Counted from the stretch's first letter, positions 1,683 through 63,745 are shown. The stretch: DNA of 64,000 bases from Blastocatellia bacterium (GCA_035652435.1 DASRDU010000099.1:130453-194452), one strand, 5' to 3'. The notes: a model not told the origin generated them from the sequence alone. A program made the numbers and translations.

Positions 1683-3116
1683 ATGATTTCACCTCTCGCA
1701 TTCTTCTCTGAACAATTCGGCATCGCCGTTTCTGACATCGAAGCGCTGCTCGGCGTGGCGTTGTCGAAGGGGGGCGATTACGCCGACCTTTATTTCGAGT
1801 ATTCCGTCACGAGCAACCTCAACCTCGAAGAGCAGATCGTCAAGTCGGCCAACCGCTCGGTGGCGCAGGGCGTCGGCGTGCGCGTCGTTTCCGGCGAGCG
1901 CACCGGCTACGCTTACTCCGACGAAATTGACCGCGAGGCGATTCGCAAAGCCGCGCTCACCGCCGCGCATATCGCCAGCAGTAACGCCAGTCCCGGCCCG
2001 GTCAATGTCTCCGCCGCGAGTCCGAAGCACGATCTCTATTCGGTCCCGCACGCGCTTACTGAAGAGACGCTGGAACGCAGGATCGCGCTGCTCCGGCGCG
2101 CCGAGCAGACCGCGCGCGCCTACGACCCGCGCATCCGCGAGGTGCAGAGCCTGATCGTGGACAAACACAAGCTGGTTTTGATCGCGACTTCCGACGGAAT
2201 GCTGATCGGCGACGTGCAGCCGCTCGTGCGCATGAACGTGACCTGCATTGCCGACGCCGACGGCAATCTGCAGCGCGGCTATGCGGGCGGCGGCGGGCGC
2301 GACAATCTGGATTTTTTCGAGCAGAAAAGATCGCCGGAGTTTTTTGCCACCGAAGCCGCGCGCCAGGCAATCTCTCTGCTCGATGCCGTGGACGCCCCCG
2401 CCGGGGCGATGGAAGTGGTACTCGGCCCCGGCTGGCCCGGCGTGCTGCTGCACGAGGCCGTCGGTCACGGCTTGGAATCGGACTTCAACCGCAAAGGCAC
2501 TTCGGCTTTTGCCGGGCTCGTCGGCCAGCGTGTCGCGAGCGAACTTTGCACCGTTGTTGATGACGGCACGCTGCCGGGCCGCCGCGGCTCGCTCAACATT
2601 GACGACGAGGGGAACCCGACGACCAGCACCGTGCTGATCGAAAATGGGATTCTGCGCGGCTACCTGCAGGACAAACTGAGCGCCCGGCTGACGGGCGCTG
2701 GCGTAACCGGCAACGGCCGCCGTGAAAGCTATCAGCACGTGCCAATGCCGCGCATGACGAACACCTTCATGCTCGGCGGCGAAAGCACGCCCGAAGAGAT
2801 CATCGCTTCGGTCAAACGCGGCCTGTACGCGGTCAATTTCGGCGGCGGTCAGGTGGACATCACCAACGGGAAATTCGTTTTCACCGCCAGCGAGGCCTAC
2901 CTGATCGAAGACGGCAGAATCACCGCGCCGGTCAAGGGCGCCACGCTCATCGGCAACGGCCCGAACGCGCTGACGAAGGTGACAGCCGTCGGCAATGACC
3001 TGCGGCTCGACGAGGGCGTCGGCGTCTGCGGCAAGAACGGACAGTCGGTGCCGGTGGGAGTTGGCATGCCGACGATCAGGATTTCCGAGATGACTGTGGG
3101 TGGGACGAAAGGGTGA
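1683..3116 (+). CDS. tldD: Metalloprotease TldD (peptidase U62)
   Basis: 477 aa. Contains the HExxxH motif (HEAVGHGLE) and the C-terminal GxC glycine-rich segment typical of TldD. A PmbA-type paralogue is encoded just downstream. Confidence 0.9.
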   Translation: MISPLAFFSEQFGIAVSDIEALLGVALSKGGDYADLYFEYSVTSNLNLEEQIVKSANRSVAQGVGVRVVSGERTGYAYSDEIDREAIRKAALTAAHIASSNASPGPVNVSAASPKHDLYSVPHALTEETLERRIALLRRAEQTARAYDPRIREVQSLIVDKHKLVLIATSDGMLIGDVQPLVRMNVTCIADADGNLQRGYAGGGGRDNLDFFEQKRSPEFFATEAARQAISLLDAVDAPAGAMEVVLGPGWPGVLLHEAVGHGLESDFNRKGTSAFAGLVGQRVASELCTVVDDGTLPGRRGSLNIDDEGNPTTSTVLIENGILRGYLQDKLSARLTGAGVTGNGRRESYQHVPMPRMTNTFMLGGESTPEEIIASVKRGLYAVNFGGGQVDITNGKFVFTASEAYLIEDGRITAPVKGATLIGNGPNALTKVTAVGNDLRLDEGVGVCGKNGQSVPVGVGMPTIRISEMTVGGTKG

Positions 3117-3144
3117 TGTTGTTATACGTACATCCGAGGTTTTT

Positions 3145-3537
3145 ATGTGTCGTTACGCTGGCATGAATTATAAAGGGCATTACGCGTGCTTCGATTGCCG
3201 CAAGGCTTTCAAGGAGCGAAACGGTTTTGGGGGAGAAGAATATAAGCAGAAATACGGTGAACACCGGAAGGTGCTTTGCCCCGAATGTCATCGCCCGATG
3301 GCAGACTTGGGCCTTGATTTCAAAGCTCCCAAGAAAATGGACGTGAAGCAGTGGCAAAAAGTTGAGATCCTCTACAATCACGGGTTCACATATCATTCCT
3401 GTGGATGTTGCGGGCCGGGCCTGCGGCCCGCTGAATTGCGCGATGTAGAGGCTTTTCTTCATGACAAGCTACCCGAATCTGATGGCGAGAAACTTCTTAA
3501 GAAGATAGAAAGGGCAGCCAGTAATCGAAAGCAATAA
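3145..3537 (+). CDS. Small Cys-rich zinc-ribbon protein of unknown function (131 aa), inserted between tldD and pmbA
   Basis: GAGG at 3135-3138, then ATG at 3145. Cysteine pairs CFDC...CPEC...CGCC, followed by a charged helical C-terminus. Local GC is clearly lower than the flanks. The listed ORF start at 3100 overlaps tldD and is less plausible. Confidence 0.55.
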   Translation: MCRYAGMNYKGHYACFDCRKAFKERNGFGGEEYKQKYGEHRKVLCPECHRPMADLGLDFKAPKKMDVKQWQKVEILYNHGFTYHSCGCCGPGLRPAELRDVEAFLHDKLPESDGEKLLKKIERAASNRKQ

Positions 3538-3590
3538 AAGCAGCGAGTTGCCCGAATCTCAAACTCTGAAAGTTTCCCTCGAACTATTGG

Positions 3591-4955
3591 ATGACAACAC
3601 AAATTTCAACTCACTTTCTCTCCGACATCGTCAGCAAAGCGGTCAGGCGCGGCGCGACTGAAGCCGAGGCAATCGCGCTTGAAAACACCGATTTCTCCGT
3701 CGAAGTGCGGCTCGGAGAAATCGAGAAGCTTGAGGAATCGGCTTCGCGTGGCCTGGGACTGCGCGTGATTTATGAGGGCCGGCAGGCTTCGGCTTCGACT
3801 TCGGATTTTTCGGCGAAGGCGCTCGATGAATTGATCACGAGCGCGGTCGAGATGGCCCGGCTGACTTCGGTTGATGACGCGGCGGTGCTGCCTTCGCGCG
3901 AGGAACTTTTATCTGCCGGCGGAGTCAATAGCGGCGATCTGGCGCTGTACGATGAATCCATCGTGCTGCTCCCGACCGGGCGCAAAATCGAAATGGCCTG
4001 CACGGCCGAGGCCGCGGCACGAGACGCTGACCCGCGCATCACCAATTCCGAGGGCGCGTCGTGCGCGACCACGGTCGGTCGGCTGACTCTGGTGAACAGC
4101 TCGGGGTTTGCGGGCGAATATCGCGGCACGACGTGCTACCTTTCGGTTTCGCCGATCGCGCGTGACGGCGATCAGATGCAGGTGGCCGGCTGGGGGGACA
4201 CTCAACGCTCACTGGCGGCGCTGGACAGGCCGGAAGAACTCGGACGGGAAGCGGCGCGGCGAGCGCTACGCAAACTCGGCGGGCGCAAAGTGGGGACGCA
4301 GGAAGTCCCGATTGTCTTTGAATCCGGCGCGGCTGAAGAACTGCTCGGTGATCTCTTTGAGGCCGCGAGTGGCGAATCCATCTTCCGCCGCGCCTCGTTC
4401 CTGGTCGGGCAGACCGGCGAACGGATCGGCTCGGAGCAGCTGACGATTGTGGACGACGGGAGGCTGCCCGGCGCGGTCGGCTCGCGGCCTTTCGACGGCG
4501 AGGGGCTGCCGACGCGGCGGACGGTGATTGTCGAAAACGGGGTGCTGCGGAGTTACTTGCTCAATACCTACACGGCGCGTAAGCTGGGCCTGCGTTCGAC
4601 GGCCAACGGCGCGCGCGGGCTGTCTGGCCTGCCGGGCGTCGGCATCAATAACTTCTTCATCGCGCCCGGGCGTCATTCGCCCGAAGAGATCGTCGCTTCC
4701 GTCGGCAACGGGTTTTACGTGACCGAAACGATTGGCTTCGGCTTCAACGCGGTGACGGGTGATTACTCGCGCGGCGCTTCCGGCGTGTGGATTGAACAGG
4801 GCAGGCTCAGTTACCCGGTCGAAGAGGTCACCATCGCCGGCAACTTCCGCGAGATGCTGCGCGGAATCGAAATGATTGGCAACGATCTCCGCTTCCGGGG
4901 CAAGATCGCGGCCCCGACCGTCAAAATCAACCGGATGATGGTCAGCGGAGACTGA
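3591..4955 (+). CDS. pmbA: Metalloprotease PmbA/TldE (peptidase U62, non-HExxH partner of TldD)
   Basis: 454 aa. Alignable with the upstream TldD (GxGxR, C-terminal GxxxxGD region) but lacks HExxxH. The tldD-pmbA arrangement is classical. Confidence 0.85.
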   Translation: MTTQISTHFLSDIVSKAVRRGATEAEAIALENTDFSVEVRLGEIEKLEESASRGLGLRVIYEGRQASASTSDFSAKALDELITSAVEMARLTSVDDAAVLPSREELLSAGGVNSGDLALYDESIVLLPTGRKIEMACTAEAAARDADPRITNSEGASCATTVGRLTLVNSSGFAGEYRGTTCYLSVSPIARDGDQMQVAGWGDTQRSLAALDRPEELGREAARRALRKLGGRKVGTQEVPIVFESGAAEELLGDLFEAASGESIFRRASFLVGQTGERIGSEQLTIVDDGRLPGAVGSRPFDGEGLPTRRTVIVENGVLRSYLLNTYTARKLGLRSTANGARGLSGLPGVGINNFFIAPGRHSPEEIVASVGNGFYVTETIGFGFNAVTGDYSRGASGVWIEQGRLSYPVEEVTIAGNFREMLRGIEMIGNDLRFRGKIAAPTVKINRMMVSGD

Positions 4956-4956
4956 G

Positions 4957-5499
4957 TTGAACCCTGCGGATTTCCGACACCTTATGTTCGAACCAGAATC
5001 AGAGAAAGCCAAAGAACAACAGCGCTCGCGCCTGCTCCTGGGCCTGGGGGCGATTGCCGCCCTGGTCGTCGCCGGGGCGTTCATTATTTTCGCGACGCTC
5101 AAGCAGCAGGCGGAATCGCCGACGATGCCCGACGCCCTGCGGGCGGGCAATCAGGAGTTCGAAAATTACAAATCCAAAGTGGAGATTGACAAGCCCAACA
5201 AGCAGGACGTGATGGCGCAGCAGAACCTGATGGGGATGGTGCAGTTCACGATTCAAGCCGAGTTGCGTAATCAGGGTGATCGCACGCTCACCGGAATTGA
5301 GATCGTCGCCCAGGCTTATGACCTTGAGGACAAGCTGATCGCGCAGAAAATCGGCCAGCCGATCCCCCGCGTGCGGCCTGAGCCGCTTAAGCCGGGCGAG
5401 TCAATGCGCATCGCGATCAAGCTTGACGTTCCGTCGAAGTATAAGGAAGCAGATGTCAAACTGGTGAAGGCTGAGCTTCATGGGCTGCGGTTCCAGTAG
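4957..5499 (+). CDS. Hypothetical membrane-anchored protein (single N-terminal TM)
   Basis: GGAG at 4947-4950 precedes a TTG at 4957; an alternative ATG lies at 4984. Hydrophobic stretch LLLGLGAIAALVVAGAFIIFATL. The stop is followed by a hairpin terminator. Confidence 0.55.
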   Translation: MNPADFRHLMFEPESEKAKEQQRSRLLLGLGAIAALVVAGAFIIFATLKQQAESPTMPDALRAGNQEFENYKSKVEIDKPNKQDVMAQQNLMGMVQFTIQAELRNQGDRTLTGIEIVAQAYDLEDKLIAQKIGQPIPRVRPEPLKPGESMRIAIKLDVPSKYKEADVKLVKAELHGLRFQ

Positions 5500-5530
5500 C
5501 CAGAAATCGCTGAAAAGCGTCGGACAAAAA

Positions 5531-5572
5531 CAAAGGCGGTCGCGGATTTTTGATGATCCGCGACCGCCTTTG
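5531..5572. terminator. Bidirectional rho-independent terminator between convergent genes
   Basis: Stem AAAGGCGGTCGCGG / CCGCGACCGCCTTT with loop atttttgatgatc. The minus strand reads into a TTTGTTTTTG run; the plus strand has a weaker T tract. Confidence 0.7.
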
Positions 5573-5603
5573 TTCTGAGATTCTGGTGACTGAATCGGCC
5601 TCT

Positions 5604-6971
5604 TTAGTCGTGATTCTTCGGCTGGGCTTCCATAATCTTAGGCTGAACCTCAATGGCCGCGGTCGTTGGCGTCGCGCCCGGACCGAGGAATCGCGTGGAG
5701 ATGCTGCGATAAATCTTGCCCGCCACATCCGCGGCGCGCTTGCCCGCCTCGCCCGAACCGTTGGTGATCACCGTCACCACCAGCTTCGGGTTGGTGATGC
5801 TGGAAAATGAAGTGAACAGGCCGAGCTTGGCCGAATCGCCGGTGCAGGTCCCGGTCTTGCCCGCGACCTGTCCGATCGGGTCGTAGGCGGCTCTGGCCGT
5901 GCCGTAATTGACCGCGCCAATCATCCCGGAGAGCATGCGCAGGCGGTCTTCCGGGGTCATCTCAATTTTACGCCTCAACTCCGGCTTGAAGCTGGCGGCC
6001 TCTTCAGGAGTGCGCGGGATGCGCGGCACGTAAAGGTAACCGCCATTCGCGATGGCCGCGGTGAAGCTTGCCAGCTGAATCGCCGTGAAGCCGAAACCGT
6101 CGCCGTGGCTCGACATATGGCCGGTGTTCTGTTCGCCTTCCTCGGGCAGGAACCCGTCGCTCTCGCCCAGATAATTGGCCCCGGTCTTCTGGCCGAAGCC
6201 GAAATTATGGGCATAGCCGATGACCTTTTCGTAGCCAAGGCGGCGGCCCAGTTCCTGGAAGAACGGGTTATTCGAGTGGGCGATGGCGTCCGTCAGGTTC
6301 AGGCCACGACCGTTGCTCGCCAGCTGCAGGTCCGTACTCGGGTCGAGAACCTTCTCGTGCAATGCCGCCATGCCGACGACCAGCTTGACGGTCGAGCAGG
6401 GCTTGACGGGCGAGCCAAGGGCCATGCGCTGGTTGACGATCGCGTAGATGCGTCCGTTGGTCGCGTCCATCACCACCGCCGTGCCGGCCCTGCCGCCGAG
6501 CGCCTCAATGGCGGCGCGACGCACGTCAGGGTCTTCACCGGTCGTGTTGTCCTTGAGAATGTTGGCGGCGGCGCTGTTGTGCAGCGCCTCATCGCGGGCG
6601 CGGATGGCGCGCAGGCGGGCGGCGCGGATGGCGGCGGCCCGGGCCGCTGCCTGGCGCCGCTCTTCGGCGCGGTAAGATGCCAGCAGCTTGCGCTCGGACT
6701 TGCTCAGTCCGCCGCGGCGCTGGCGCTTCATCATATCGCGTAGCTGACTCTGACTGATTTGCGGGCCGCGACGGGCTTCGCGACTGTGACGGCCCCCGCG
6801 AGTGGAGGCGACTCGCTCACGGCCTTTGGATTTCCCCTTCTTCCCTTCTTTGGCGGCTGCTGCGCGGTGGCGCTTTTTCGCGTACGCGGTGCCATTGGGG
6901 GAGATGACCACGAGTGCGCTGAACAGAGCGAACACGAACGTGGTCGTGACAGCACGATTGACTGATTTCAT
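5604..6971 (-). CDS. Penicillin-binding transpeptidase-fold protein with signal peptide and long polybasic N-terminal segment
   Basis: SxxK (STVK), SxN (SNN) and KTG (KTGT) motifs occur in the correct order. The signal peptide MKSVNRAVTTTFVFALFSALVVISPNGTAYA starts at the ATG at 6971, preceded by GGAAAGG. The listed ORF extends to 7028, but that start is less likely. Confidence 0.75.
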   Translation of the reverse strand: MKSVNRAVTTTFVFALFSALVVISPNGTAYAKKRHRAAAAKEGKKGKSKGRERVASTRGGRHSREARRGPQISQSQLRDMMKRQRRGGLSKSERKLLASYRAEERRQAAARAAAIRAARLRAIRARDEALHNSAAANILKDNTTGEDPDVRRAAIEALGGRAGTAVVMDATNGRIYAIVNQRMALGSPVKPCSTVKLVVGMAALHEKVLDPSTDLQLASNGRGLNLTDAIAHSNNPFFQELGRRLGYEKVIGYAHNFGFGQKTGANYLGESDGFLPEEGEQNTGHMSSHGDGFGFTAIQLASFTAAIANGGYLYVPRIPRTPEEAASFKPELRRKIEMTPEDRLRMLSGMIGAVNYGTARAAYDPIGQVAGKTGTCTGDSAKLGLFTSFSSITNPKLVVTVITNGSGEAGKRAADVAGKIYRSISTRFLGPGATPTTAAIEVQPKIMEAQPKNHD

Positions 6972-7390
6972 TCTCAATACCTTTCCTGTAACCTGTGACA
7001 ACGATCTCCCTGCTGACAACAGTTCCACTGCGGGGAAACTATCATTCGTCAGCCAGCCGCGGTTTTCGCGCCGGCCGGCTTCAGGGGTATTGGATAGTTG
7101 TGGATCTGATGTGAAGTGATCGCGCCGAACCTCGTGATGAATGGCACCACGTAACTACGGCCCCAGCAGCCGTATTGCACGACGTCACCACTATCGGAAT
7201 GAGCGTTGTCCCTGTACAATTGAAGAGCAAGCGCACAGCAGGCTTCCCTCTATGGCTTTGTTACCGCGAAAGCCGGGGGCAGGCGCACGGGCAGAGTCTA
7301 GCAAATTCAATTGACCGGCACAACGGGTAATCAGAGGAATGTCAGATTAAAAACACTTCTCCGCGGCCCTTTCGTCCCCGGATTGTTCGT

Positions 7391-8911
<1,521 letters not shown>

Positions 8912-24054: not shown

Positions 24055-25020
24055 ATGAAAGCCATCGTCGTTGAAAATTACGGAGGGCCTGAAGTCCTGG
24101 TTTACCGCGATGTGGAGCGACCCGTCCCGAAATCCGGGGAAGCGCTGGTCAGGCTGGAAGCGATTGGCCTCAACTACATTGACGTCTACCACCGCACGGG
24201 CCTTTACCCACTGTCCCGGCCCTTCACTCCGGGGACAGAAGGCGCGGGCGTAGTGGAAGCCGTCGGGCCTGACGTCTCCGATGTCGCAGTCGGTGACCTC
24301 GTAGCTTACGCGATGGCCCCGGGCGCATACGCCGAATACGCGGCGGTTCCGGCGGCGCGGCTCGTTAAGGTTCCTGACGGGATTGATTCGCGCACGGCAG
24401 CGGCGGCGATGCTGCAGGGGATGACTGCTCATTACCTGGTCACATCCGTTTATCCACTGAAGGGCGACGCGGCGCTCATTCACGCCGCAGCCGGCGGCGT
24501 CGGGCTGCTCCTGATTCAGATGGCGAAGCGCCTTGGGACGCGCGTCATCGGCACTGTTTCGACCGAAGCCAAAGCGCAACTCGCGCGCGAAGCCGGGGCC
24601 GACGAAGTGATTCTTTACACGCAGCAGGATTTCGAGCAGGAAACGCGCCGGCTGACCGGCGGGCGCGGCGTGCAGGTGGCCTACGATTCGGTCGGGCGCG
24701 ACACTTTCCTGAAGAGCCTGAACACGCTCGCGCCGCGCGGCATGCTGGCCCTCTACGGGCAATCGAGCGGCCCGGTCGAGCCGTTCGACCCCGCGCTGCT
24801 GTCGCAGAAAGGCTCGCTCTTCCTCACCCGCCCGAGTCTGGCGCATTACACGGCCACGCGCGAGGAACTGCTGTGGCGCGCGGGCGACGTGCTTGGCCAG
24901 ATCGCCGCGGGCGAGCTGAAGCTCAGGATCGAGCGCACCTTCCCGCTGGCCGAAGCCGCTGAAGCCCACCGCCAGCTTGAAGGGCGAAAGACGACCGGCA
25001 AGGTGTTGCTGATTCCCTGA
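24055..25020 (+). CDS. qor: NADPH:quinone oxidoreductase (MDR superfamily, zeta-crystallin-like)
   Basis: MKAIVVENYGGPEVLVY...GLNYIDVY...AAGGVGL (GxGxxG). GAGGAG precedes the ATG at 24055. The listed ORF start at 24037 is 6 codons upstream. Confidence 0.8.
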   Translation: MKAIVVENYGGPEVLVYRDVERPVPKSGEALVRLEAIGLNYIDVYHRTGLYPLSRPFTPGTEGAGVVEAVGPDVSDVAVGDLVAYAMAPGAYAEYAAVPAARLVKVPDGIDSRTAAAAMLQGMTAHYLVTSVYPLKGDAALIHAAAGGVGLLLIQMAKRLGTRVIGTVSTEAKAQLAREAGADEVILYTQQDFEQETRRLTGGRGVQVAYDSVGRDTFLKSLNTLAPRGMLALYGQSSGPVEPFDPALLSQKGSLFLTRPSLAHYTATREELLWRAGDVLGQIAAGELKLRIERTFPLAEAAEAHRQLEGRKTTGKVLLIP

Positions 25021-25066
25021 TTCCTGATTCAAATCGCGGCAGGAAAATTGATTTGCTGAAGAGACA

Positions 25067-25333
25067 ATGACGAAAAAATCTTCTGGAACAATGGAGAAAT
25101 CCCGGGAGTCAAAACCAAAACTTCGGTGCCCGGATTGCGGCAACAGTGATTACTTCATCGAGATTATGGATTTCGAGTCTCATTTGGTGACTGGTCATTT
25201 GAACTATGTGCGGCTACTTGATGCGGTAACAGATTACTATCTCTGCCATGAGTGTGGCAGACGTATTGAGCCACGATGGTTGAGGCAGCAAAAGAACTTT
25301 CGACGGGACTGGGGATTTGAGGCACGAAAGTAA
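25067..25333 (+). CDS. Small zinc-ribbon protein (CPDC...CHEC), hypothetical; first gene of a low-GC island
   Basis: 88 aa, two CxxC pairs about 40 residues apart, in markedly AT-richer DNA than the flanks. No recognisable HTH. Confidence 0.45.
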   Translation: MTKKSSGTMEKSRESKPKLRCPDCGNSDYFIEIMDFESHLVTGHLNYVRLLDAVTDYYLCHECGRRIEPRWLRQQKNFRRDWGFEARK

Positions 25334-25359
25334 TCACAGGTCAGGAAAGCGGCGAGACA

Positions 25360-26361
25360 ATGGATCTATTCGATCAGGTGTTTGGTGTTTTGGAGGAGGA
25401 GGTAGAGTTTGAGCTGCGTGAAAGTGTCTTCATTCCATGGGCCGATCATTGGCTGAACCCACGCCAACTGCGCGGCAGTGATTTTCTGATGCGATGGTCA
25501 CAGGGAGCTTGGAGCGAGCTTCGTTTGAAAGAGGCTGTCAATCGCACCGGCAGGTTTTATGCACTTCCTTACGGGCCAAGTGGTGCCGCGCCTGACAATG
25601 ATCCGCGTAAGGCCGAGCTTTACTTTCTGCGACTGGAGCAGGCAGGAATTGGGAAAGTGAAACGACCTGATTTGCTGCTCTTTCGAGAGAGTGACAGGAA
25701 AACGGTTGAAGAGATTGTTCTGAAAATTGCAGCCGAGGCAGAGGGCTTCTCTGCTGGAGATGACATCGAGAAAGCCATTACGGAATTACCCTTCACGCCG
25801 GAAGATCACCCATTGATTCAATCGCTGCTTTCGAAGGCATCCTTGGCAATTGAATGTGAAAACAGTTTGTGGGTGGCGAAAAGGATGCCACTCTATGGTC
25901 AGCCGATGAAGCCGATGAAGCGACTCGGCGGCAAACCGGGACTGAAGAAGAATTCGGTTCTGCCGACTGTGATCCTCAAGAATGAAGACCGTGATCCGCT
26001 GAAAGCCTGGCAAAGACAGCGCAATATTCCGATTCATATCTGGCATGTCTTCTACGATCTGGCTTTCGGCATCGCTTTGGACGAAGCAGAGAGACTGATT
26101 GCGGAAGGACTCATTGAACCGATAGAACAGACTTTCCAGGCTCCCGGCGGGCAGGTAACGAAGAAAGCCATTTACAAGATCTACTATCATTACGCTTATG
26201 AACTTGGCGAGGCGCACGAACAACCATCTCTGATTGCTGCCAGCATTATTGATAAAAACGGTCACGTTCTGCCTTACGTGAAGTTTGAAGGTGGCAGTCT
26301 GGCTTTGAGCGAGCAGGCATTGGCGGTTCTGGAAGAGGCCGCGAGCAAACACAACCTATGA
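25360..26361 (+). CDS. Hypothetical protein, candidate restriction endonuclease or effector of an R-M-like cassette (333 aa)
   Basis: Low-GC. The stop overlaps the start of the downstream N6-adenine MTase by 4 nt (ATGA). A possible PD...(D/E)xK-like segment is KRPDLLLFRESDRK. No family was recognised from memory. Confidence 0.4.
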   Translation: MDLFDQVFGVLEEEVEFELRESVFIPWADHWLNPRQLRGSDFLMRWSQGAWSELRLKEAVNRTGRFYALPYGPSGAAPDNDPRKAELYFLRLEQAGIGKVKRPDLLLFRESDRKTVEEIVLKIAAEAEGFSAGDDIEKAITELPFTPEDHPLIQSLLSKASLAIECENSLWVAKRMPLYGQPMKPMKRLGGKPGLKKNSVLPTVILKNEDRDPLKAWQRQRNIPIHIWHVFYDLAFGIALDEAERLIAEGLIEPIEQTFQAPGGQVTKKAIYKIYYHYAYELGEAHEQPSLIAASIIDKNGHVLPYVKFEGGSLALSEQALAVLEEAASKHNL

Positions 26362-27896
26362 TTCCCCGACTCACACAACAAAAACTCCCTTCGTCCGGCC
26401 CCGCACGCGAAGCTTTGCGCGAGAAAGGTCAGTTCTGGACACCGGCATGGGTAGCTGAAGCGATGGTCGCCTGGTGTGTGGCTGGTGGCAGCGACACCCT
26501 TTTTGACCCGGCCGTCGGTGGGGGCGCATTCTTCCACGCGGCTAAAGCGGTCGGACAGGAACGGGGACGGATGCTGCGGCTGCTGGGAACGGAGATTGAT
26601 CCAGAGGCTTTGCAGCAGGCGTTATCGAGTGGGCTTTCATCTTGTGATCTGACAGGCGTTGAAATCAGAGACTTCGTCTTGCAGCCCCCATCAGCCCGCT
26701 ATCAGGCTGTGGTCGCAAATCCACCATATATTCGCCATCATCGGTTACTGCAATCGACCAAAGAAAAGCTCAAACGATTCGGTGCAGAGTTAATTGGTGA
26801 AAGCTTGGACGGTCGCGCCGGGCTGCACATTTACTTTCTACTACGCGCGGTGCAGTTGCTCGCGCCAGATGGTCGGCTGGCTTTCATTATGCCAGCCGAT
26901 ACCTGCGAAGGAATTTTCGCTCGAACTCTCTGGCGGTGGATTACAACACATTACTGTCTTGAAGCTGTGATCACATTCGCGCCGGACGCCTCGCCGTTCC
27001 CCAGCGTAGACACCAATCCGGTCATCTTCCTGATCCGCAATGCCGCTCCGAAAGCGCGATTTCACTGGGCGCGCTGCACACAGGCGGAGACAGGCGACCT
27101 CAAAACGTGGCTGGACTCAGACTTCAGAGAGGCCCCGCTGGATCATCTGGAAATCTACGAACGAGAAACAGCGGAGGGCATTTCATCAGGATTGTCACGA
27201 CCGCCTGCTGAGACGGGGAACGTCAACATGACTCTGTCGGACTTTGCCCGGGTTATGCGTGGCATTGCGACCGGTGCGAACGAGTTTTTCTTTCTGACCA
27301 GGAAGCAGGCTGAAGAGTTGAATATTCCTGAAACAATGCTCCTTCCTGCCGTTGGGCGCACGCGTGATGTGCCGGGCGAAGTCGTCACGCAGGAGACTCT
27401 TCAGCAACTGGAAGAATCCGGCAGGCCGACATGGCTTTTCGCTCCGGATGGCCGTGACCTGAATTTATTTCCTGACTCAGTGCGTGAATACCTGCTGAAA
27501 GGGCTGGAAGCGGGATTGAATCAGAGGCCGCTCATCGCGCAGCGACGCCCCTGGTACAGGATGGAGGCGCGCCGCGCCCCTGAATTTCTTTTCGCATATC
27601 TCGGTCGTCGCAACGCAAGGTTTATTCGCAACGTTGCCAGCGTTATGCCGCTGACCGGATTCCTGTGTGTTTATCCCCGCAGCAATGATCCTGCCTTTGT
27701 CGAGAAATTGTGGCAGGTGCTTCGACATCCGGACACGGTGAAAAACCTCGCCGCGGTGGGCAAGTCCTATGGCTCAGGCGCAATCAAGGTCGAACCTCGT
27801 GCGCTCGAACGCCTGCCAATTCCCGATCACATCATCGGGGGGGCGGACTTAAAGCCGGTACTACAGCAACCAACCTTACCGGGTGCGTTGTGGTGA
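26358..27896 (+). CDS. N6-adenine DNA methyltransferase, gamma-class (motif X-I-IV order, C-terminal TRD)
   Basis: Motif X-like QFWTPAWVAEAMV. Motif I DPAVGGGAFF. Motif IV VVANPPYIRHH. 512 aa with a long C-terminal region consistent with a target-recognition domain. Resembles Eco57I/TaqI-type N6 DNA methylases. Confidence 0.85.
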   Translation: MIPRLTQQKLPSSGPAREALREKGQFWTPAWVAEAMVAWCVAGGSDTLFDPAVGGGAFFHAAKAVGQERGRMLRLLGTEIDPEALQQALSSGLSSCDLTGVEIRDFVLQPPSARYQAVVANPPYIRHHRLLQSTKEKLKRFGAELIGESLDGRAGLHIYFLLRAVQLLAPDGRLAFIMPADTCEGIFARTLWRWITTHYCLEAVITFAPDASPFPSVDTNPVIFLIRNAAPKARFHWARCTQAETGDLKTWLDSDFREAPLDHLEIYERETAEGISSGLSRPPAETGNVNMTLSDFARVMRGIATGANEFFFLTRKQAEELNIPETMLLPAVGRTRDVPGEVVTQETLQQLEESGRPTWLFAPDGRDLNLFPDSVREYLLKGLEAGLNQRPLIAQRRPWYRMEARRAPEFLFAYLGRRNARFIRNVASVMPLTGFLCVYPRSNDPAFVEKLWQVLRHPDTVKNLAAVGKSYGSGAIKVEPRALERLPIPDHIIGGADLKPVLQQPTLPGALW

Positions 27897-29360
27897 GACA
27901 GCGACCTCAAAGTTGCACTCAACCTTGTCATCCCCGGCTGTCACTTTCAGATTCGAAAGCGTGTAACGGCTCACTTCGCTGCTCACCACCTTCATTCCGT
28001 TTCCATTGCTCACCTCGATTATTCGCGGCAGCTGGACTTCGCGGCTGAGAATTTCTGGCAGGGCGAGTTTGTCGAACCACCGGTCAGCCTGCACGGAGAT
28101 GGTCTGCGGAAGGCTCAGGCGCCGGCCCATCACTTCGATGCCGAGGCTGACTCTGACGGGCACGCGGGAGCCGGGGACGGCGCGCAGGATGACACCGTTA
28201 TTTTCGCCTGCGACCTCAAGCGGGATAGTCTCGTTGCTGATGGAAAATGTCCCGCGCGGCGAAAGCGAATAAGGGACGCCATATTCGCGGCCTCGCAGCC
28301 TGGCGGTCAGGTCGCCTTCGGCGGTGAGGCGCAGATTCAAACGATTGTCGTTGATTGATTCAATCAAAAGGCTCTGCACGTCAGCGCGACCGTCGCCGGA
28401 TTCAACGTCGGCGTAGTTATGGATGCGCACGAGCGCGTCTTTTTCTTCGTTGCGGATGCGCGCCGGTTTGAGGCGAAAGTCGAGATCGGTCGTGCGCGCG
28501 GCGGCCACCCCGGCAAGCAGCGTGTTGAGGGCGCGGCGGCTCAGGCGAATGCGCAGGTCGCTTTCGGCGGTGAGGTGCCGGCTCAGGTTTTCAATCTCGC
28601 TTTCGAGCGCGGCGGCCTCATCGGGCGTGTCCAGTGAGGCGCTGCTCTGATCATTTGCCGTGCCGGTCTGCGTTTGCAGGTTCAGTGCGGCTACTGCTCT
28701 GCCTTTGAGCATCATCAGTGCGGCGAGCGTCAGGTTCACCTTCACCTGGTAAGCCGGCGTGGTGATCTCCATCGGCATCGTGCCTTCGACGTCGAAGCGC
28801 GCGGCGGGGATTTCGAGCGACTCGGACAGGTTGAGCGGGATTTCGAGCGGCGGCAGCACGGCGTCCCAGCGCTCGGGCGAGAGCCACTGGCGAAAGATCG
28901 CGGCCAGTAGCGAAGAGGGCAATGAATCACTTTTCACTTCGGTCAGCCGGAACGGGATGCGCAGTTTTGACTGGGTGACTTCGCCATTGCCGAGCGTGCC
29001 TTTCAGCGTCAGGCTGACAGGCGCCGGCAGCGGCACGGGCGGCGACACCTTGACGCCGATCTCGACCGGCGCGGCTGCCGTGTTGAGCTGAATGGCAATC
29101 GAGCCAAGGTGCAGCACCGTGCCGTTCGCCAGCCTGATTTCGAGCCCGGCCATCTGATTTGCAATCGTGGCGAGTGCGCTTTCGCGGATTACGGCGACTG
29201 CGTCGGCGTTGCGCAGCCCTTCCTGAGCGATCAACTGGTCGCGCAGCTGGCGCAGCGATTGAGTCGAAGCCGTCTGCGCGTGAGCGGCGGGCGCGACCAG
29301 GCACAGCAGAACCAGCGCCGCGAACCGTTGCACCGCCGGGTTGAATGAAGCCCTCATCAC
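27876..29360 (-). CDS. Hypothetical secreted protein (signal peptide; about 490 aa)
   Basis: MMRASFNPAVQRFAALVLLCLVAPAAHAQ is a signal peptide. No recognisable catalytic motifs. Divergently arranged from the LytS-like kinase gene. Confidence 0.55.
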   Translation of the reverse strand: MMRASFNPAVQRFAALVLLCLVAPAAHAQTASTQSLRQLRDQLIAQEGLRNADAVAVIRESALATIANQMAGLEIRLANGTVLHLGSIAIQLNTAAAPVEIGVKVSPPVPLPAPVSLTLKGTLGNGEVTQSKLRIPFRLTEVKSDSLPSSLLAAIFRQWLSPERWDAVLPPLEIPLNLSESLEIPAARFDVEGTMPMEITTPAYQVKVNLTLAALMMLKGRAVAALNLQTQTGTANDQSSASLDTPDEAAALESEIENLSRHLTAESDLRIRLSRRALNTLLAGVAAARTTDLDFRLKPARIRNEEKDALVRIHNYADVESGDGRADVQSLLIESINDNRLNLRLTAEGDLTARLRGREYGVPYSLSPRGTFSISNETIPLEVAGENNGVILRAVPGSRVPVRVSLGIEVMGRRLSLPQTISVQADRWFDKLALPEILSREVQLPRIIEVSNGNGMKVVSSEVSRYTLSNLKVTAGDDKVECNFEVAVSPQRTR

Positions 29361-31439: not shown

Positions 31440-31493
31440 GAGGCTGTTTGGAAAGTGTCGACACCGCATGATTTCCGTCCCCGAAGGGGACAT

Positions 31494-59075: not shown

Positions 59076-59636
59076 TCACTCTTCTCCATTCACTGCAACA
59101 GCCTCATCACCATACCGTCGCCGCCGGAATTCTCTGATCTGACCGGCCGTGAACAAACGACGATGACCCAGACTGCGCTTCGGGCGCAGCTCTCCATTCT
59201 GGCAGTAACCGAGCAGCGTCAACTGTCCCACCCCGAGCATCCGTGCTGCTTCCGGTTCGCTCAATTCAACATCGTCGCTGAGGTCGGCAAAAGAGCCTGA
59301 ACACTCGTGAATCGCCGCCCCCAGCGGCGTCGCCCAGAACAGCGCCGGGATCTCGCCTTCGTGACTCGGAGCCTTGCCGAAAAGAATTCGCAGCAGCTGT
59401 TTGCAGGTGCTGTAAACGTCCGGGACTTCACGAATGCCAGCGGCGTGATCAAATGCATCGCGCATCATCTGAGCCAGCGGACACGTGCTGGTCTGCTCAA
59501 TGGTCGGGGACTTGATTTCAGAACCGGGCAGGATCAGTTGCGCGATCACCCAGCGCGCTTCGTGAAAAACACGACTGACTTGGGCGCGAATGTCATCTTC
59601 GATTTCCCGGGGCGTGAACTCAAACGATTTTTTCAT
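59076..59636 (-). CDS. Hypothetical protein with C-terminal excisionase-type helix-turn-helix
   Basis: LSEPEAARMLGVGQLTLLGYCQNGELRPKRSLGHRRLFTAGQIREF matches the HTH_17/excisionase-family DNA-binding pattern. Start at the ATG at 59636. The listed ORF extends 16 codons further upstream. Confidence 0.55.
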   Translation of the reverse strand: MKKSFEFTPREIEDDIRAQVSRVFHEARWVIAQLILPGSEIKSPTIEQTSTCPLAQMMRDAFDHAAGIREVPDVYSTCKQLLRILFGKAPSHEGEIPALFWATPLGAAIHECSGSFADLSDDVELSEPEAARMLGVGQLTLLGYCQNGELRPKRSLGHRRLFTAGQIREFRRRRYGDEAVAVNGEE

Positions 59637-59639
59637 AAT

Positions 59640-60028
59640 TGAGCGTCTGCTCTGCAATGCCGCAATCTGCTCTGACCGTAGCACGGCCCGTCACTTACTG
59701 TAAACGTCAAACAGTTATTGTAAAAATCCAAAATAATTGATGAATATCAGAAGCTCTGACCATTTTTGATAAAAGTTTCTATGAAAATCTGGCCGTTCGG
59801 CACTCTGATCTCCAGAAAACCAAATGAAATTCATAAAAATGGATGAAGTAAACAAATTTCCGTATGTAGGAGTCCCATAAGTTTCCTAGTTACAACACCA
59901 GATGGTATAGAGTCCATCGGCATAAGACTTGCACACTTATAAGAATTCACCGAATTTACATTTTGGAACCGAATCGGAATTTCTGATTCCATCAACACAA
60001 AAGCCTATCAAAACAGGAGGTAACTACC
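59640..60028 (+). promoter_or_regulatory. About 390-bp AT-rich leader/promoter region upstream of the TonB-dependent receptor
   Basis: Roughly 35-40% GC against a mid-60s % background. Multiple A/T tracts and short direct repeats (GAATTTC, CGAATCGGAATTTCTGATTCC). Ends with AGGAGG 8 nt before the TTG start. Confidence 0.5.
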
Positions 60029-63000
60029 TTGAAGTTTCTGAACAGATTTCTTGTCCTGTCCTGTCTCTTAAGCTTGTTTGTTGGAACCGCAACAGCTCAG
60101 AACGCTCTCGGGCGCATTGCCGGAACCGTGAGGGATCAGGCTGGCGCCGTAGTTCCCGGGGCAAAAGTGACTCTCACCAACGAAACCACCGGACAACTGA
60201 TCCAGACGACGACCTCGAATAATGAGGGTGTGTTCCTGTTTCCACAGCTGACGCCATCCTCCTACACCGTCAGGATCGAGATGGCCGGATTCAAGTCAGT
60301 CGCTTATAACGAAGTGAAGGTTGACCCCGGACAGGAGTATTCGCTCGTAGCGTCTTTGGAAGTCGGACAGGCCGGCGAGGTCGTTCAGGTCACGGCCGGG
60401 GCCGATCTGGTCAACACCAGCAATCCGGAAATCAACAATACTGTCATCCGCCGTCAGATTGTTGACCTGCCGCTGAATGGTCGCAACCCGATTGAACTGA
60501 TCAGACTTCAGGCCGGTGTCGTCGGGCTGCCCACGCGCACCAACACAACGATCAACGGCGGTCGCCCGACCTGGACGCAGCTGACGCAGGACGGCATCAA
60601 CATACAGGACAACTTCATCCGCACCAACTCGCTTGACTTTGTCCCCAATCGCCCGACCACGGATACGATTGCCGAGTTCACCATCACTACCAATACCCAG
60701 GGCGCAGATTCAGCCGGCGGGGCTTCTCAGGTCAAACTGGTGACGCCCGCAGGAACCAACCAGTTTCATGGCAGCCTTTACGAGTTCAACCGCAACTCGG
60801 CTTTCGCTGCCAACAGCTGGTTCAATAACCGGACGATAAATGCCAGCACCGGTAAATCCGTCCCGCGTCCTTTCCTCAACCGCAATCAGTTTGGCGGTAA
60901 TATCAGCGGGCCGGTGCTTGTTCCGAAGAAAGTTTTCGGCCCGCTCGGTGGCTGGAATGACAACAAGGATAAACTCTTCTTCTTCTTTAGCTATGAAGGC
61001 TTCCGCCAACGCACTCAGACGACACAGAACAATACGATCCCGGCAAATAATGATTTCCTGACCGGCGTGTTCAGATATGTACGCCCGAGTGATAGTTCAG
61101 TACAGGCAGTCAATGTTCTCTCCATCCTGCCGGGGGTAACACTGGATCCCAAGGTGAAGAACCTGCTTCTGGATCCGGTGCCGCCTGCATCCCAGGTCAA
61201 CAACTTTGACGTGGGTAACTCGACCGCAACACGTATCCTCAACACGGCGGGCTACCGGTTCAATCAGGGCGACGTGAACGACCGTAACCAGTACGGCTTC
61301 CGCTTTGATTATCAGGCGAATGAAAGGCATCGTTTTGAGTTCATCCACACCCATTTCAAGGAAATAGATGACCGCACCGATCTTGATTTAATTAACCAGC
61401 GCCCCAAGGTCTTCACCGATGCCAATGTCAGGTTGTATGTCGGCGCCTGGCGCTGGACGGTCACGCCGAAGCTGCAGAATGAATTGCGCATCGGCGCAAA
61501 CCTGGCGCCGGTGGATTTCAAGTCGAATGAGAATTTCAGCGGGTTTATCTGGAATATTCCCTTCCTCACTCTCCGCGAGGCGAACTTCCAGCCTCAGGGA
61601 CGCAACACGCGGACGTTTCAGTACATTGACAACGCTTCGTACGTCGCCGGCAATCACTCGCTCCAGTTCGGCGGCAGCCTCCAGCGGATCAAGGTTAACC
61701 CTTACAACTTTGCCGGGCGGTTCCCGACTGTGAATTTTGGCTTCAGTTCTGCTGCCCCTGCCAGTGTTCAGTTGACTGCGGCGAACTTCCCGGGCGGGTC
61801 AATCAGTGCCACTGATCTGGCCAACGCGAATGCGTTGCGGACTTTCCTCGGAGGTGTCGTCAGTTCGGTATCACAAACCTTCCAGGTCAAAGACAAAACT
61901 TCCGGCTTCGTCGGCGGCATTCCGAATGACCGTAACTTCATCCTCGACAACTGGTCGTCTTACCTGCAGGATAACTGGCGCATCAGGCCCAATCTCAGTC
62001 TTCGCCTCGGGTTGAAGTGGGAATATTTCAGTCCACTCAGGGAGGAAGACGATCTGCAACTCCTGCCCGTCATCAGCGGGGATGTGAGATCAACCCTGCT
62101 TAGCCAGAACGCGACACTTGATTTCGTCAAGGGCGATTTCTACAAAAAGGATCTCAACAATTTCGGCCCCTCAGTCGGCTTCGCATGGGATCCGTTCAAG
62201 GACGGTAAGACTTCAGTTCGCGCGGGCTACACTATGACCTTCGTCAATGAGGAGACCATTACCGTCGGACGCGCCGCCTCAAACAGTAACAGCGGGTTGT
62301 CAACGGGGGCATCGCTGCTTAATCAGTATGCTACCGTTAATGCTGGCGTCCCTGTCATCCCCACGCCGACCTTCAAGGTTCCCCGCACTTATGCTGATCA
62401 GCTGGCGCTGAGTCTGACTTCCAGCGCGTTCGCGATTGATCCCAATATCAAACAGCCGTACGTTCACCAGATCAGTTTCAGTATTGAACGTGAATTGTTC
62501 TGGGATCTGGCGGTTGAGGGACGCTACGTCAGCACGATGGGCAGAGATGTCTGGCGTGGCATTGAGCTGAATCAGCTCGGTTTCAGTAACGCCTTCCTGC
62601 AGGATTTCCTGAAGGCGCGCAGCAACGGATTTATTGCGCTCAACACTCCGGCCACGACCCCGGGCTGCACGGCTGCAACCTGCGGCGTCTTCAACCCCGA
62701 TTACAATGCCAACCTGCCGGGCAGCCAGCAAATCCCTGAGATAACAAAATTTGGTGGTGGCCTGCTGACTCAGGCCGCCGTCAGAAGTGCGATTCAGACA
62801 GGGCAACCGGCCAGCTTGGCCAGCACTTACATCACTTCCACCGCCAGCCGCAGTGCGGCCTTGGGAGCGGGCTTCCTGCCGAATCCGGGTATTTTCGGCG
62901 CGGGCCTGATTCTGAACGGAGGGACGACTGATTATCACGCTTTCCAGGGTGAAATTCGCCGCCGCTTCAAGAACGGCATCTTTGGTCAGATGAACTATAC

Positions 63001-63745
63001 CTTCAGCAAGGTGCTGACCAACTCAGCTGGCACCGCGCAGAATCGGTTCGAGCCTTACGTTGACAATGCGCGTTCTGAGATTGACAAAACGCGTGCCGAG
63101 TTCGACGTGACTCACGTGATCAATGCCAGCATGATTTATGAACTTCCCTTCGGGAGGGGGAAACGTTTCCTCGGCAACACAAACGGTGTTTTCGATCGGA
63201 TCATCGGAGGCTGGCAGGTCAGTTCGATCGTCCACTATCAGAGTGGCGCCCCGATCTCCATCCTGTCAGGGCGCGGCACGTTCAGTAACACCGGGAGCAA
63301 TCCTGCCGTTTCGACTCTGACGCGTGACCAGATCAAGGACCTGTTTGGCATCCGCAAGATGCCCGACGGCCGGGTGTTTTACATTGACCCCAAAGTCACT
63401 GATCCGGCTACCGGGCGCGCAGTGGGGGCTGATAATCTCGGCAACACTGCCGGGTTCAGCGGTCAGGTCTTCTTCCACCCCACAGCCGGAAATATAGGCA
63501 CGTTACAGCGATTGCAGTTTGATGGCCCGTCTCAGACCTCCTGGGACTTCTCGGCGATCAAACGCATCCGTTTCGATGCTGAAGGGGTAAGGAATCTGGA
63601 GTTCCGCGCTGACTTCTTCAACTTCCTCAATCACCCCCTCTTCTTTGTGGGCGATTACAACATTGACAGTACTCAGTTCGGAAGAATCACGAGTCTGAAC
63701 TTCGGCGCGCGCGTCGTGCAGCTTTCTTTGAAGTTCAATTTCTAG
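60029..63745 (+). CDS. TonB-dependent outer-membrane receptor with N-terminal carboxypeptidase-regulatory-like domain
   Basis: TTG start after AGGAGG. Signal peptide. IAGTVRDQAGAVVPGAKVTLTN (CarbopepD_reg-like). Plug region. Very long beta-barrel with a C-terminal aromatic residue (KFNF). Architecture is typical of Acidobacteria and Bacteroidetes. Confidence 0.85.
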   Translation: MKFLNRFLVLSCLLSLFVGTATAQNALGRIAGTVRDQAGAVVPGAKVTLTNETTGQLIQTTTSNNEGVFLFPQLTPSSYTVRIEMAGFKSVAYNEVKVDPGQEYSLVASLEVGQAGEVVQVTAGADLVNTSNPEINNTVIRRQIVDLPLNGRNPIELIRLQAGVVGLPTRTNTTINGGRPTWTQLTQDGINIQDNFIRTNSLDFVPNRPTTDTIAEFTITTNTQGADSAGGASQVKLVTPAGTNQFHGSLYEFNRNSAFAANSWFNNRTINASTGKSVPRPFLNRNQFGGNISGPVLVPKKVFGPLGGWNDNKDKLFFFFSYEGFRQRTQTTQNNTIPANNDFLTGVFRYVRPSDSSVQAVNVLSILPGVTLDPKVKNLLLDPVPPASQVNNFDVGNSTATRILNTAGYRFNQGDVNDRNQYGFRFDYQANERHRFEFIHTHFKEIDDRTDLDLINQRPKVFTDANVRLYVGAWRWTVTPKLQNELRIGANLAPVDFKSNENFSGFIWNIPFLTLREANFQPQGRNTRTFQYIDNASYVAGNHSLQFGGSLQRIKVNPYNFAGRFPTVNFGFSSAAPASVQLTAANFPGGSISATDLANANALRTFLGGVVSSVSQTFQVKDKTSGFVGGIPNDRNFILDNWSSYLQDNWRIRPNLSLRLGLKWEYFSPLREEDDLQLLPVISGDVRSTLLSQNATLDFVKGDFYKKDLNNFGPSVGFAWDPFKDGKTSVRAGYTMTFVNEETITVGRAASNSNSGLSTGASLLNQYATVNAGVPVIPTPTFKVPRTYADQLALSLTSSAFAIDPNIKQPYVHQISFSIERELFWDLAVEGRYVSTMGRDVWRGIELNQLGFSNAFLQDFLKARSNGFIALNTPATTPGCTAATCGVFNPDYNANLPGSQQIPEITKFGGGLLTQAAVRSAIQTGQPASLASTYITSTASRSAALGAGFLPNPGIFGAGLILNGGTTDYHAFQGEIRRRFKNGIFGQMNYTFSKVLTNSAGTAQNRFEPYVDNARSEIDKTRAEFDVTHVINASMIYELPFGRGKRFLGNTNGVFDRIIGGWQVSSIVHYQSGAPISILSGRGTFSNTGSNPAVSTLTRDQIKDLFGIRKMPDGRVFYIDPKVTDPATGRAVGADNLGNTAGFSGQVFFHPTAGNIGTLQRLQFDGPSQTSWDFSAIKRIRFDAEGVRNLEFRADFFNFLNHPLFFVGDYNIDSTQFGRITSLNFGARVVQLSLKFNF

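Follow-up and report, generated by a model that had tools for sequence, protein, structure and literature searches.

A Type II restriction–modification cassette of the AccI family with a predicted RTCGAY target and an accessory zinc-ribbon gene in a Blastocatellia genome

The DNA analysed is a 64-kb window of an acidobacterial genome, that of a Blastocatellia bacterium; "the window" denotes this whole stretch, and coordinates are counted from its start. It contains an island of three co-directional genes encoding a small zinc-ribbon protein, a 333-amino-acid (aa) protein and a DNA methyltransferase (MTase). An earlier inspection of the DNA alone (the sequence-only reading) had proposed that these genes form a low-GC (guanine plus cytosine) island and a candidate restriction–modification (R-M) or defence cassette. 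The three open reading frames (ORFs) lie where that reading had put them, and the island has a GC content of 0.537, compared with 0.606 in the remaining window; only 1.8% of equal-sized segments are this low. The features of the cassette are as follows.

25067–25333, + strand: zinc-ribbon gene, 88 aa (ORF call; two CxxC pairs)
25127–25138 and 25244–25255, + strand: zinc-ribbon CxxC pairs C21-x2-C24 and C60-x2-C63 (translation)
25360–26361, + strand: AccI-family restriction endonuclease (REase) gene, 333 aa (ORF call; predicted PD-(D/E)XK fold)
25669–25671 and 25852–25860, + strand: candidate REase catalytic residues D104 and E165/E167, with E53 and K207 as further candidates (alignment invariance and AlphaFold2 model)
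26358–26361, + strand: ATGA overlap of REase stop (TGA, 26359–26361) and MTase start (ATG, 26358–26360), read from the sequence
26358–27896, + strand: putative gamma-class N6-adenine DNA MTase gene, 512 aa (ORF call)
26433–26444, 26505–26531 and 26718–26729, + strand: MTase motifs FWTP, DPAVGGGAF and NPPY (translation)

The restriction endonuclease and its methyltransferase

The sequence-only reading identified the class of the last gene correctly. Its translation contains F26-W-T-P29 (motif X), D50-P-A-V-G-G-G-A-F58 (motif I) and N121-P-P-Y124 (motif IV), followed by a C-terminal target-recognition region at about residues 290–490, and this order is that of the gamma class. The protein matches the Pfam families N6_Mtase and Eco57I, with M_Eco57I_C below its cut-off, and the PADLOC model MTase_II (E 2.4e-48). 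The solved structures that come closest to the catalytic domain include M.TaqI (PDB 2ibs; E 5.9e-9, residues 13–181). Judged by these motifs and matches, the 512-aa protein is a gamma-class N6-adenine DNA MTase. M.TaqI, which methylates the A of TCGA, belongs to the same class and has the same motif order, and TCGA forms the core of the target predicted below. The two enzymes align over the catalytic domain alone, however; the C-terminal recognition domain differs here, resembling M_Eco57I_C, and the predicted site has 6 bp.

For the 333-aa protein, the sequence-only reading could name no family and suggested a novel REase or a non-canonical effector. This novelty is refuted. The protein exceeds the gathering cut-off of Pfam RE_AccI (PF09545; 34.7 bits against 22, E 1.3e-8), a family matched independently by all 30 of 30 aligned relatives (best E 5.3e-18). 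A PADLOC search, which that reading had recommended, matched REase_II PDLC03401 over residues 204–319. The NCBI entry of the identical protein, one of 2281 homologous clusters, is named 'AccI family restriction endonuclease [Blastocatellia bacterium]'. By these matches the protein is an AccI-family Type II REase that was already annotated. Because the REase belongs to a known family by its Pfam match and NCBI name and is strictly linked to its MTase (see below), the locus corresponds to what the same reading had named as the ordinary outcome, a common Type II R-M system.

AccI and the present system have homologous REases of similar size (333 aa against a 366-position model) and share the Type IIP organisation; the partner of AccI is a gamma-class N6-adenine MTase of about 510–540 aa. 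The zinc-ribbon gene is an addition found in a subclade of these AccI-family systems. Weighing against the family assignment, the RE_AccI match is moderate and distant: the protein is about 33 residues shorter than the model, and its central region, including the ECENSLW motif, lies outside the best aligned stretches.

The REase ORF is complete, can be aligned over its whole length with 29 relatives and retains every invariant residue of the alignment, namely K101-R-P-D104, E165-C-E-N-S-L-W171, E53 and K207. The sequence-only reading had seen a weak PD...DxK-like segment and called for a fold search. The AlphaFold2 model has a mean predicted local distance difference test score (pLDDT) of 83.8 and a predicted template modelling score of 0.82. 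In this confident model the protein has the fold of the PD-(D/E)XK superfamily, with an alpha-beta-beta-beta-alpha-beta core like that of solved members. D104 directly precedes core strand 105–109, E165 and E167 lie in strand 162–168, and K207 is on the following strand, a placement that fits the PD...ExE variant. Catalysis would then be carried out by D104 together with E165-x-E167, an ExE version of the (D/E)xK motif like that of BamHI. A classification of Type II REases from 2008 (PMC2441816) put the AccI family, with five members, under 'Unknown superfamily', and the main text of a 2012 survey of PD-(D/E)XK proteins does not name it. The fold assignment is accordingly a small addition to the family and no surprise.

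The distribution of the REase was surveyed with one genome per species. It was found in 380 species genomes at 55–77% identity, spanning Chloroflexota, Acidobacteriota, Verrucomicrobiota, Proteobacteria, the candidate phyla radiation (CPR) and archaea. No copy was found among sequenced plasmids, phages or viral contigs, and PHROGs contained no match. In 83 of 84 fetched loci (referred to by L numbers) an MTase homologue lies immediately 3' of the REase on the same strand, at a distance of -4 to about +60 nt; the sole exception to this pairing (L045) is cut by the contig end. The -4 overlap recurs in the closest relatives L001–L005 and L007, and gaps reach about +60 nt in more distant ones. REase (R) and MTase (M) therefore form a strictly conserved two-gene unit, and the candidate R-M cassette of the sequence-only reading stands. 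Its observation of a coupled ATGA junction stands as well, and the overlap suggests that R and M would be co-translated.

In four of the closest relatives (L001, L002, L005 and L007) the gene upstream of the REase (e.g., L002 5033–5986) is conserved and encodes a 317-aa protein, missing from the window, with a weak DHHA1 match only (E 4e-4) and an N-terminus of the form HGNCFDG...DHH-like. As a third R-M component it was set aside on account of this weak match and its absence from the window; it is probably a host neighbour.

The best explanation of the whole, to which we assign a probability of about 0.9, is that the island is a Type IIP R-M system of the AccI homology family, organised as a compact operon in the order zinc ribbon, R, M. 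The R and M genes are separate and linked, and the sequence RTCGAY is specifically depleted in carriers of the system and not in non-carriers. The 512-aa enzyme would methylate the N6 position of adenine in the target on both strands of the host DNA, and the 333-aa PD-(D/E)XK endonuclease, presumably as a homodimer, would cut that same palindrome where it lacks methylation, as in incoming phage or plasmid DNA. One point that tells against the proposed operon is that a scan with the sigma-70 consensus found no sigma-70-like promoter in the island; terminator-like matches there were at chance level only.

The catalytic region of the MTase also gave weak matches to the MAD2, PglX and DrmMI models, as would be the case if the cassette were part of a larger non-R-M defence system of the MADS, BREX or DISARM type. 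These matches cover only the common S-adenosylmethionine/NPPY core, with 22 bits against a cut-off of 720, 13.8 against 500, and about 33 bits for DrmMI, whereas the Type II MTase models score far higher, as given above. The nearby genes (clpA, qor, one for an unannotated protein and one for a histidine kinase) include no partner genes of such systems, and the unit conserved across 80 loci is the two-gene R-M pair. Membership was rejected on score and context, and the chance that it holds is very close to nil.

Target site predicted from site avoidance

Specificity was approached through the avoidance of restriction sites in 550 kb of DNA flanking the cassette in 72 host loci, pooled without the R-M genes. 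When 1000 degenerate 6-bp palindromes were scanned in these pooled loci, the lowest observed/expected ratios belonged to GTCGAC (0.10), RTCGAY (0.12; 73 sites against 590 expected) and ATCGAT (0.16). GTCGAC, with 14 occurrences against 106 expected, had the lowest ratio of all 6-bp palindromes; ATCGAT occurred 26 times against 98 (0.16–0.27), and the non-palindromic ATCGAC/GTCGAT 16 times against 88 (about 0.19). The remaining non-palindromic NTCGAN words ranged from 1.06 to 1.59, TCGA itself stood at 1.02, and the degenerate scan gave 1.00 for YTCGAR and 0.89 for GTYRAC. Since the mixed half-site words are as depleted as both symmetric words, a degenerate palindromic target, RTC-GAY in half-sites, is indicated.

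The depletion exceeds three-fold in 62 of the 72 carrier loci and tracks carriage of the cassette across unrelated phyla. Close relatives contain 0–1 RTCGAY sites against 7–14 expected, and five loci without the system contain 61 against 69 expected. Outside the island, the window has a single site against 98.3 expected (Poisson P about 2e-41). Its two RTCGAY sites are:

26753–26758, no strand assigned: ATCGAC, inside the MTase gene
31457–31462, no strand assigned: GTCGAC, the sole site outside the island

AccI itself, from Acinetobacter calcoaceticus, has the site GT^MKAC, and GTCGAC is the only sequence common to GTMKAC and RTCGAY. The present system could be a true AccI isoschizomer, with R cleaving and M methylating GTMKAC and the avoidance of RTCGAY due to co-occurring systems; Pfam and NCBI place the REase in the AccI family, the shared GTCGAC is scarce, and GTMKAC overall stands at 0.53 of expectation in the degenerate scan. 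This deficit, however, is almost wholly caused by GTCGAC, as the other components reach 0.69 (GTATAC) and 0.83 (GTAGAC/GTCTAC) under a maximum-order Markov model. The words ATCGAT and ATCGAC/GTCGAT, which are not AccI sites, are depleted as much as GTCGAC, and the depletion follows the cassette across unrelated phyla and does not appear in non-carrier loci. Host site avoidance, an indirect test, does not point to recognition of GTMKAC, and the distance of the AccI model match (E 1e-8) makes a changed specificity plausible. A literature search on AccI/GTMKAC returned reagent uses only. We consider an isoschizomer improbable; the recognition site is probably RTCGAY, methylated as RTCG(m6A)Y (m6A, N6-methyladenine), and not GTMKAC. 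The predicted m6A position is the single conserved adenine, by analogy the same base that M.TaqI targets in TCGA.

Several observations weigh against RTCGAY as the target. Avoidance is a historical and indirect pointer to specificity, and about 10 of the 72 carrier loci, several of them from CPR or archaeal metagenome-assembled genomes (MAGs), show none. These include L036, L038, L051, L057, L081 and L082, six MAGs of Micrarchaeia, Chloroflexota, Methanophagales, Bipolaricaulota, Parcubacteria and Kaiserbacteria, in which the ratio is 0.6–1.2 despite intact R-M pairs; such loci may reflect recent acquisition, mis-binned contigs, specificity variants or inactive systems. In addition, CTCGAG, TTCGAA, GGGCCC and CGATCG are low in the pooled host loci too. 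In the window alone, further palindromes are scarce: GAGCTC (0 against 9.2 expected), CTCGAG (5 against 36), TTCGAA (7 against 36), CGATCG (8 against 36), GGGCCC (4 against 18) and GTGCAC (1 against 7.6). Depletion of further palindromes indicates that other R-M systems also act in these genomes, and suggests that this genome carries or carried systems with those sites. With so many palindromes depleted, avoidance in a single window is ambiguous; it becomes decisive once pooled over 72 loci and compared with non-carriers.

In Bifidobacterium breve UCC2003, RTCGAY is already on record as the specificity of an R-M system, with M.BbrUII as the adenine MTase (PMC12592239, PMC5829577). The BbrII/BbrUII system resembles the present one in its site, predicted here, and in its m6A chemistry, a comparison made by site and chemistry only. 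Another RTCGAY enzyme, M.Bbr28III, is a 5-methylcytosine MTase, so the same motif does not by itself imply relatedness.

Stages of REase decay are visible in the subclade that carries the zinc-ribbon gene. With MTase and zinc-ribbon genes intact, the REase is cleanly absent in L085 (1225–3040), frameshifted in L087 (1107–2301), split by an in-frame stop in L088 (86–1381), and truncated in L092 (2063–4493), where the zinc-ribbon gene has moved 3' of the MTase; the REase is likewise missing beside the zinc-ribbon and MTase genes of the P0129 contig. By the same route, the window could carry a decaying R-M system with an inactive REase, effectively an orphan MTase. The REase ORF in the window is, however, full length with every invariant residue, its ATGA coupling is intact, and RTCGAY is nearly gone from the window (1 against 98), as expected under continued restriction pressure. 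An inactive REase is for these reasons quite unlikely, and the R-M system would be currently active.

The zinc-ribbon gene

The sequence-only reading had placed a small zinc-ribbon ORF where the gene for a controller (C) protein would usually sit, which is accurate as an observation. The 88-aa protein gives only sub-threshold zinc-ribbon matches in Pfam and NCBIfam, and the family is not assigned in Pfam, NCBIfam, PADLOC or PHROG. A single-sequence search returned 10 clusters and a profile search 35; at 50% identity, 1.84 billion proteins contain 109 representatives of the family. Its four cysteines are invariant, and it has a conserved core of the form F-x-E-x-M...H-x-V...Y-x-R-L. Over a 54-codon core compared among six loci, the proportion of nonsynonymous differences (pN) is 0.11–0.20, rising to 0.35–0.39 towards the most distant member, while synonymous sites are saturated (pS 0.8–1.0). 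This pattern of substitution marks the ORF as a genuine gene subject to purifying selection.

Every zinc-ribbon context examined adjoins Type II R-M genes, and the gene usually overlaps the start of the REase. It lies 5' of an AccI-family REase in the window, L006, L021 and L093, and 5' of a frameshifted or interrupted one in L087 and L088; in L085 and the P0129 contig, which lack the REase, it is directly 5' of the MTase, and in L092 it is 3' of the MTase. In more distant members (L090, L091, L094 and L095–L102) its distance to the start of an NmeDI_C-type REase is 7 nt at most, or the two overlap; this REase matches PADLOC REase_II PDLC03534, and its partner in two loci is an N6_N4 beta-class MTase. 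The AccI-family and NmeDI_C-type REases were compared for remote homology, which was rejected (BLASTP E 1.2, hhalign probability 0.1%). Between the zinc-ribbon stop and the REase start there are 4-nt or TAATG-type overlaps or gaps of at most 7 nt in L087, L090, L091, L094 and L095; in L021 the overlap is 14 nt.

Two of these neighbourhoods contain further nuclease genes. In L094 (3453–6208), a compound R-M locus, a short N6_N4 MTase ORF, the zinc-ribbon gene, the NmeDI_C-type REase and a further, unrelated Type II REase (PADLOC PDLC03404, E 7e-92) follow one another. On the independent contigs L085 (584–1153) and L087 (485–1057), a gene for a putative endonuclease of the Uma2 family (PF05685) is located directly 5' of the zinc-ribbon gene.

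The conserved co-occurrence of all three genes, for which the sequence-only reading had suggested a search, holds for R and M (83 of 84 loci) and fails for the zinc-ribbon gene, which is present in 2 and missing from 72 of the 74 related R-M loci with room upstream. The zinc-ribbon protein is the product of a genuine accessory gene of a minority subclade, and most family members do without it. Its modular pairing with unrelated restriction genes, in the position of a C gene, suggests a role in controlling restriction. We tentatively favour, at less than even odds, a protein that modulates REase expression or activity on entry into a new host, by analogy a functional counterpart of C proteins without the helix-turn-helix (HTH).

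The comparison was made with C.PvuII, C.BamHI, C.AhdI and C.Esp1396I, which are Xre-type HTH proteins. A literature search for a zinc-ribbon R-M controller found none. Like C genes, the zinc-ribbon gene is small, co-directional with the REase gene and immediately 5' of it or overlapping it, and is found with unrelated R-M systems. It differs in encoding a four-cysteine zinc ribbon with no HTH family match, in often having no intergenic space for a promoter or operator, in lacking a C-box-like inverted repeat upstream, and in being confined to a few percent of the R-M family.

Some of the evidence runs counter to a controller role. In addition to the 72 of 74 relatives that lack the gene, no C-box-like operator, common motif or consistent inverted repeat was found in 12 zinc-ribbon upstream regions. 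The zinc-ribbon start abuts or overlaps the preceding gene in several loci (with overlaps in L006 and L094), which leaves no room there for an autoregulated promoter. An AlphaFold2 model built from a 9-sequence alignment was unusable (pLDDT 48.5).

The same features bear on the main alternative, that the zinc-ribbon protein is not a transcription factor but a post-translational partner of the REase, i.e., an inhibitor, chaperone or subunit made in stoichiometric amounts through translational coupling. The close junctions with the REase start in L087, L090, L091, L094, L095 and L021, the absence of operator-like DNA upstream of the zinc-ribbon genes, and the overlap with the preceding gene in L006 and L094 all agree with this. 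On the other hand, the protein accompanies two REase families without detectable homology, which is hard to reconcile with a specific protein–protein interface; the gene is retained with the MTase where the REase has been deleted (L085 and the P0129 contig), and most members of the R-M family need no such partner. We regard a dedicated partner as rather unlikely, and put it below modulation of restriction.

In its most specific form, modulation by the zinc-ribbon protein would define an undescribed class of R-M accessory proteins: non-HTH, with four cysteines, taken up on separate occasions by two or more unrelated Type II REase families, always 5' of the nuclease gene, and controlling restriction in a naive host through delayed or tuned REase synthesis or by acting on the enzyme. 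We offer this fuller proposal as speculative, and as slightly less probable than modulation in general.

Chromosomal setting and significance

The sequence-only reading had taken the sharp fall in GC after qor, with recovery at the downstream gene, as the signature of horizontal acquisition. The fall and recovery are as described: GC drops from 0.68 at 24600–24999 (the end of qor) to 0.46 at 25000–25399, lies at 0.49–0.58 over the three genes, and is back to 0.60–0.64 past 27800. The island is flanked by clpA and qor upstream and by a convergent 494-aa gene without annotation, followed by one for a LytS-type histidine kinase, downstream. Its edges are:

25021–25066, no strand assigned: 46-bp spacer from the qor stop to the zinc-ribbon start (left edge; a CTGATTCC tandem repeat spans the qor stop)
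27876–27896, no strand assigned: 3' end of the MTase gene and stop region of the 494-aa gene on the minus strand, overlapping convergently by 21 nt (right edge)

The position of the cassette varies among relatives. In the closest ones (77–80% REase identity; e.g., L002 and L005) the R-M genes sit between a DHH-like gene and queF, and in L093 the zinc-ribbon–R–M genes are flanked by genes for a thioesterase and a short-chain dehydrogenase. L089 is syntenic with the window (clpA 77%, qor 83%, downstream gene 54% identity) but holds no trace of the cassette; its slot between qor and the 494-aa homologue is occupied by a gene for a YhhN-family membrane protein (7563–8258, minus strand; Pfam E 1.7e-43). 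Different sites in relatives, together with the YhhN gene in the L089 slot, show that the slot is variable, and by this comparison of loci the cassette is a variable, horizontally spread element. This part of the earlier claim was sustained; a recent acquisition is less certain. The cassette is lower in GC than its flanks in 60 of 62 host loci (mean difference -0.088), so low GC is a trait of the element itself and a poor guide to the age of the insertion.

In L006, an Acidobacteriota MAG, the zinc-ribbon–R–M genes (2442–7540) directly follow clpA with no qor between, the clpA stop and the zinc-ribbon start overlapping by 4 nt. Identities to the window are 72% for ClpA, 75% for the REase and 65% for the MTase. 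This position fits either an old shared insertion or a hotspot. With a clpA-adjacent position common to the window and L006, the insertion at this slot may be old.

No convincing flanking direct or inverted repeats, tRNA or integrase were found at the island borders. At the left edge, the qor stop codon lies within a tandem repeat, CTGATTCC CTGATTCC TGATTC (25007–25032), of which a near copy, TCCTGATTCAGATGGCG, occurs within qor at 24509; the repeat at the stop could be a slippage product or an insertion remnant. At the right edge, the L089 orthologue of the 494-aa gene has a different end, and the insertion may for this reason have remodelled the C-terminus of the neighbouring protein. Elsewhere in the window, the lowest-GC 2.8-kb stretch (0.525) begins at 59501 (59500–62330) and not at the island. 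It overlaps the 5' part of a 1238-aa gene (60029–63745) for a CarboxypepD_reg and outer-membrane beta-barrel protein of the TonB-dependent type, as well as a small HTH_17 gene (59076–59684). Low GC near an ordinary outer-membrane barrel gene indicates that, in this genome, low GC does not single out foreign DNA.

Together, the core of the finding is ordinary, namely one more Type II R-M system, whose nuclease was already publicly annotated. Two results deserve to be retained: RTCGAY as the predicted site of a large 'AccI-family' clade, and a zinc-ribbon family restricted to R-M loci. The clade, scattered over 380 species of bacteria and archaea, very likely reads RTCGAY rather than GTMKAC, which is a caution against carrying specificity over by family name. 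The prediction is cheaply testable and could yield an enzyme with a degenerate 6-bp site from thermophilic or environmental sources. A family of 'unknown superfamily' in 2008 is here modelled confidently as PD-(D/E)XK with a PD...ExE-type motif. If the zinc-ribbon protein does regulate restriction, it would represent a second structural class of R-M controller, beyond the Xre-type C proteins.

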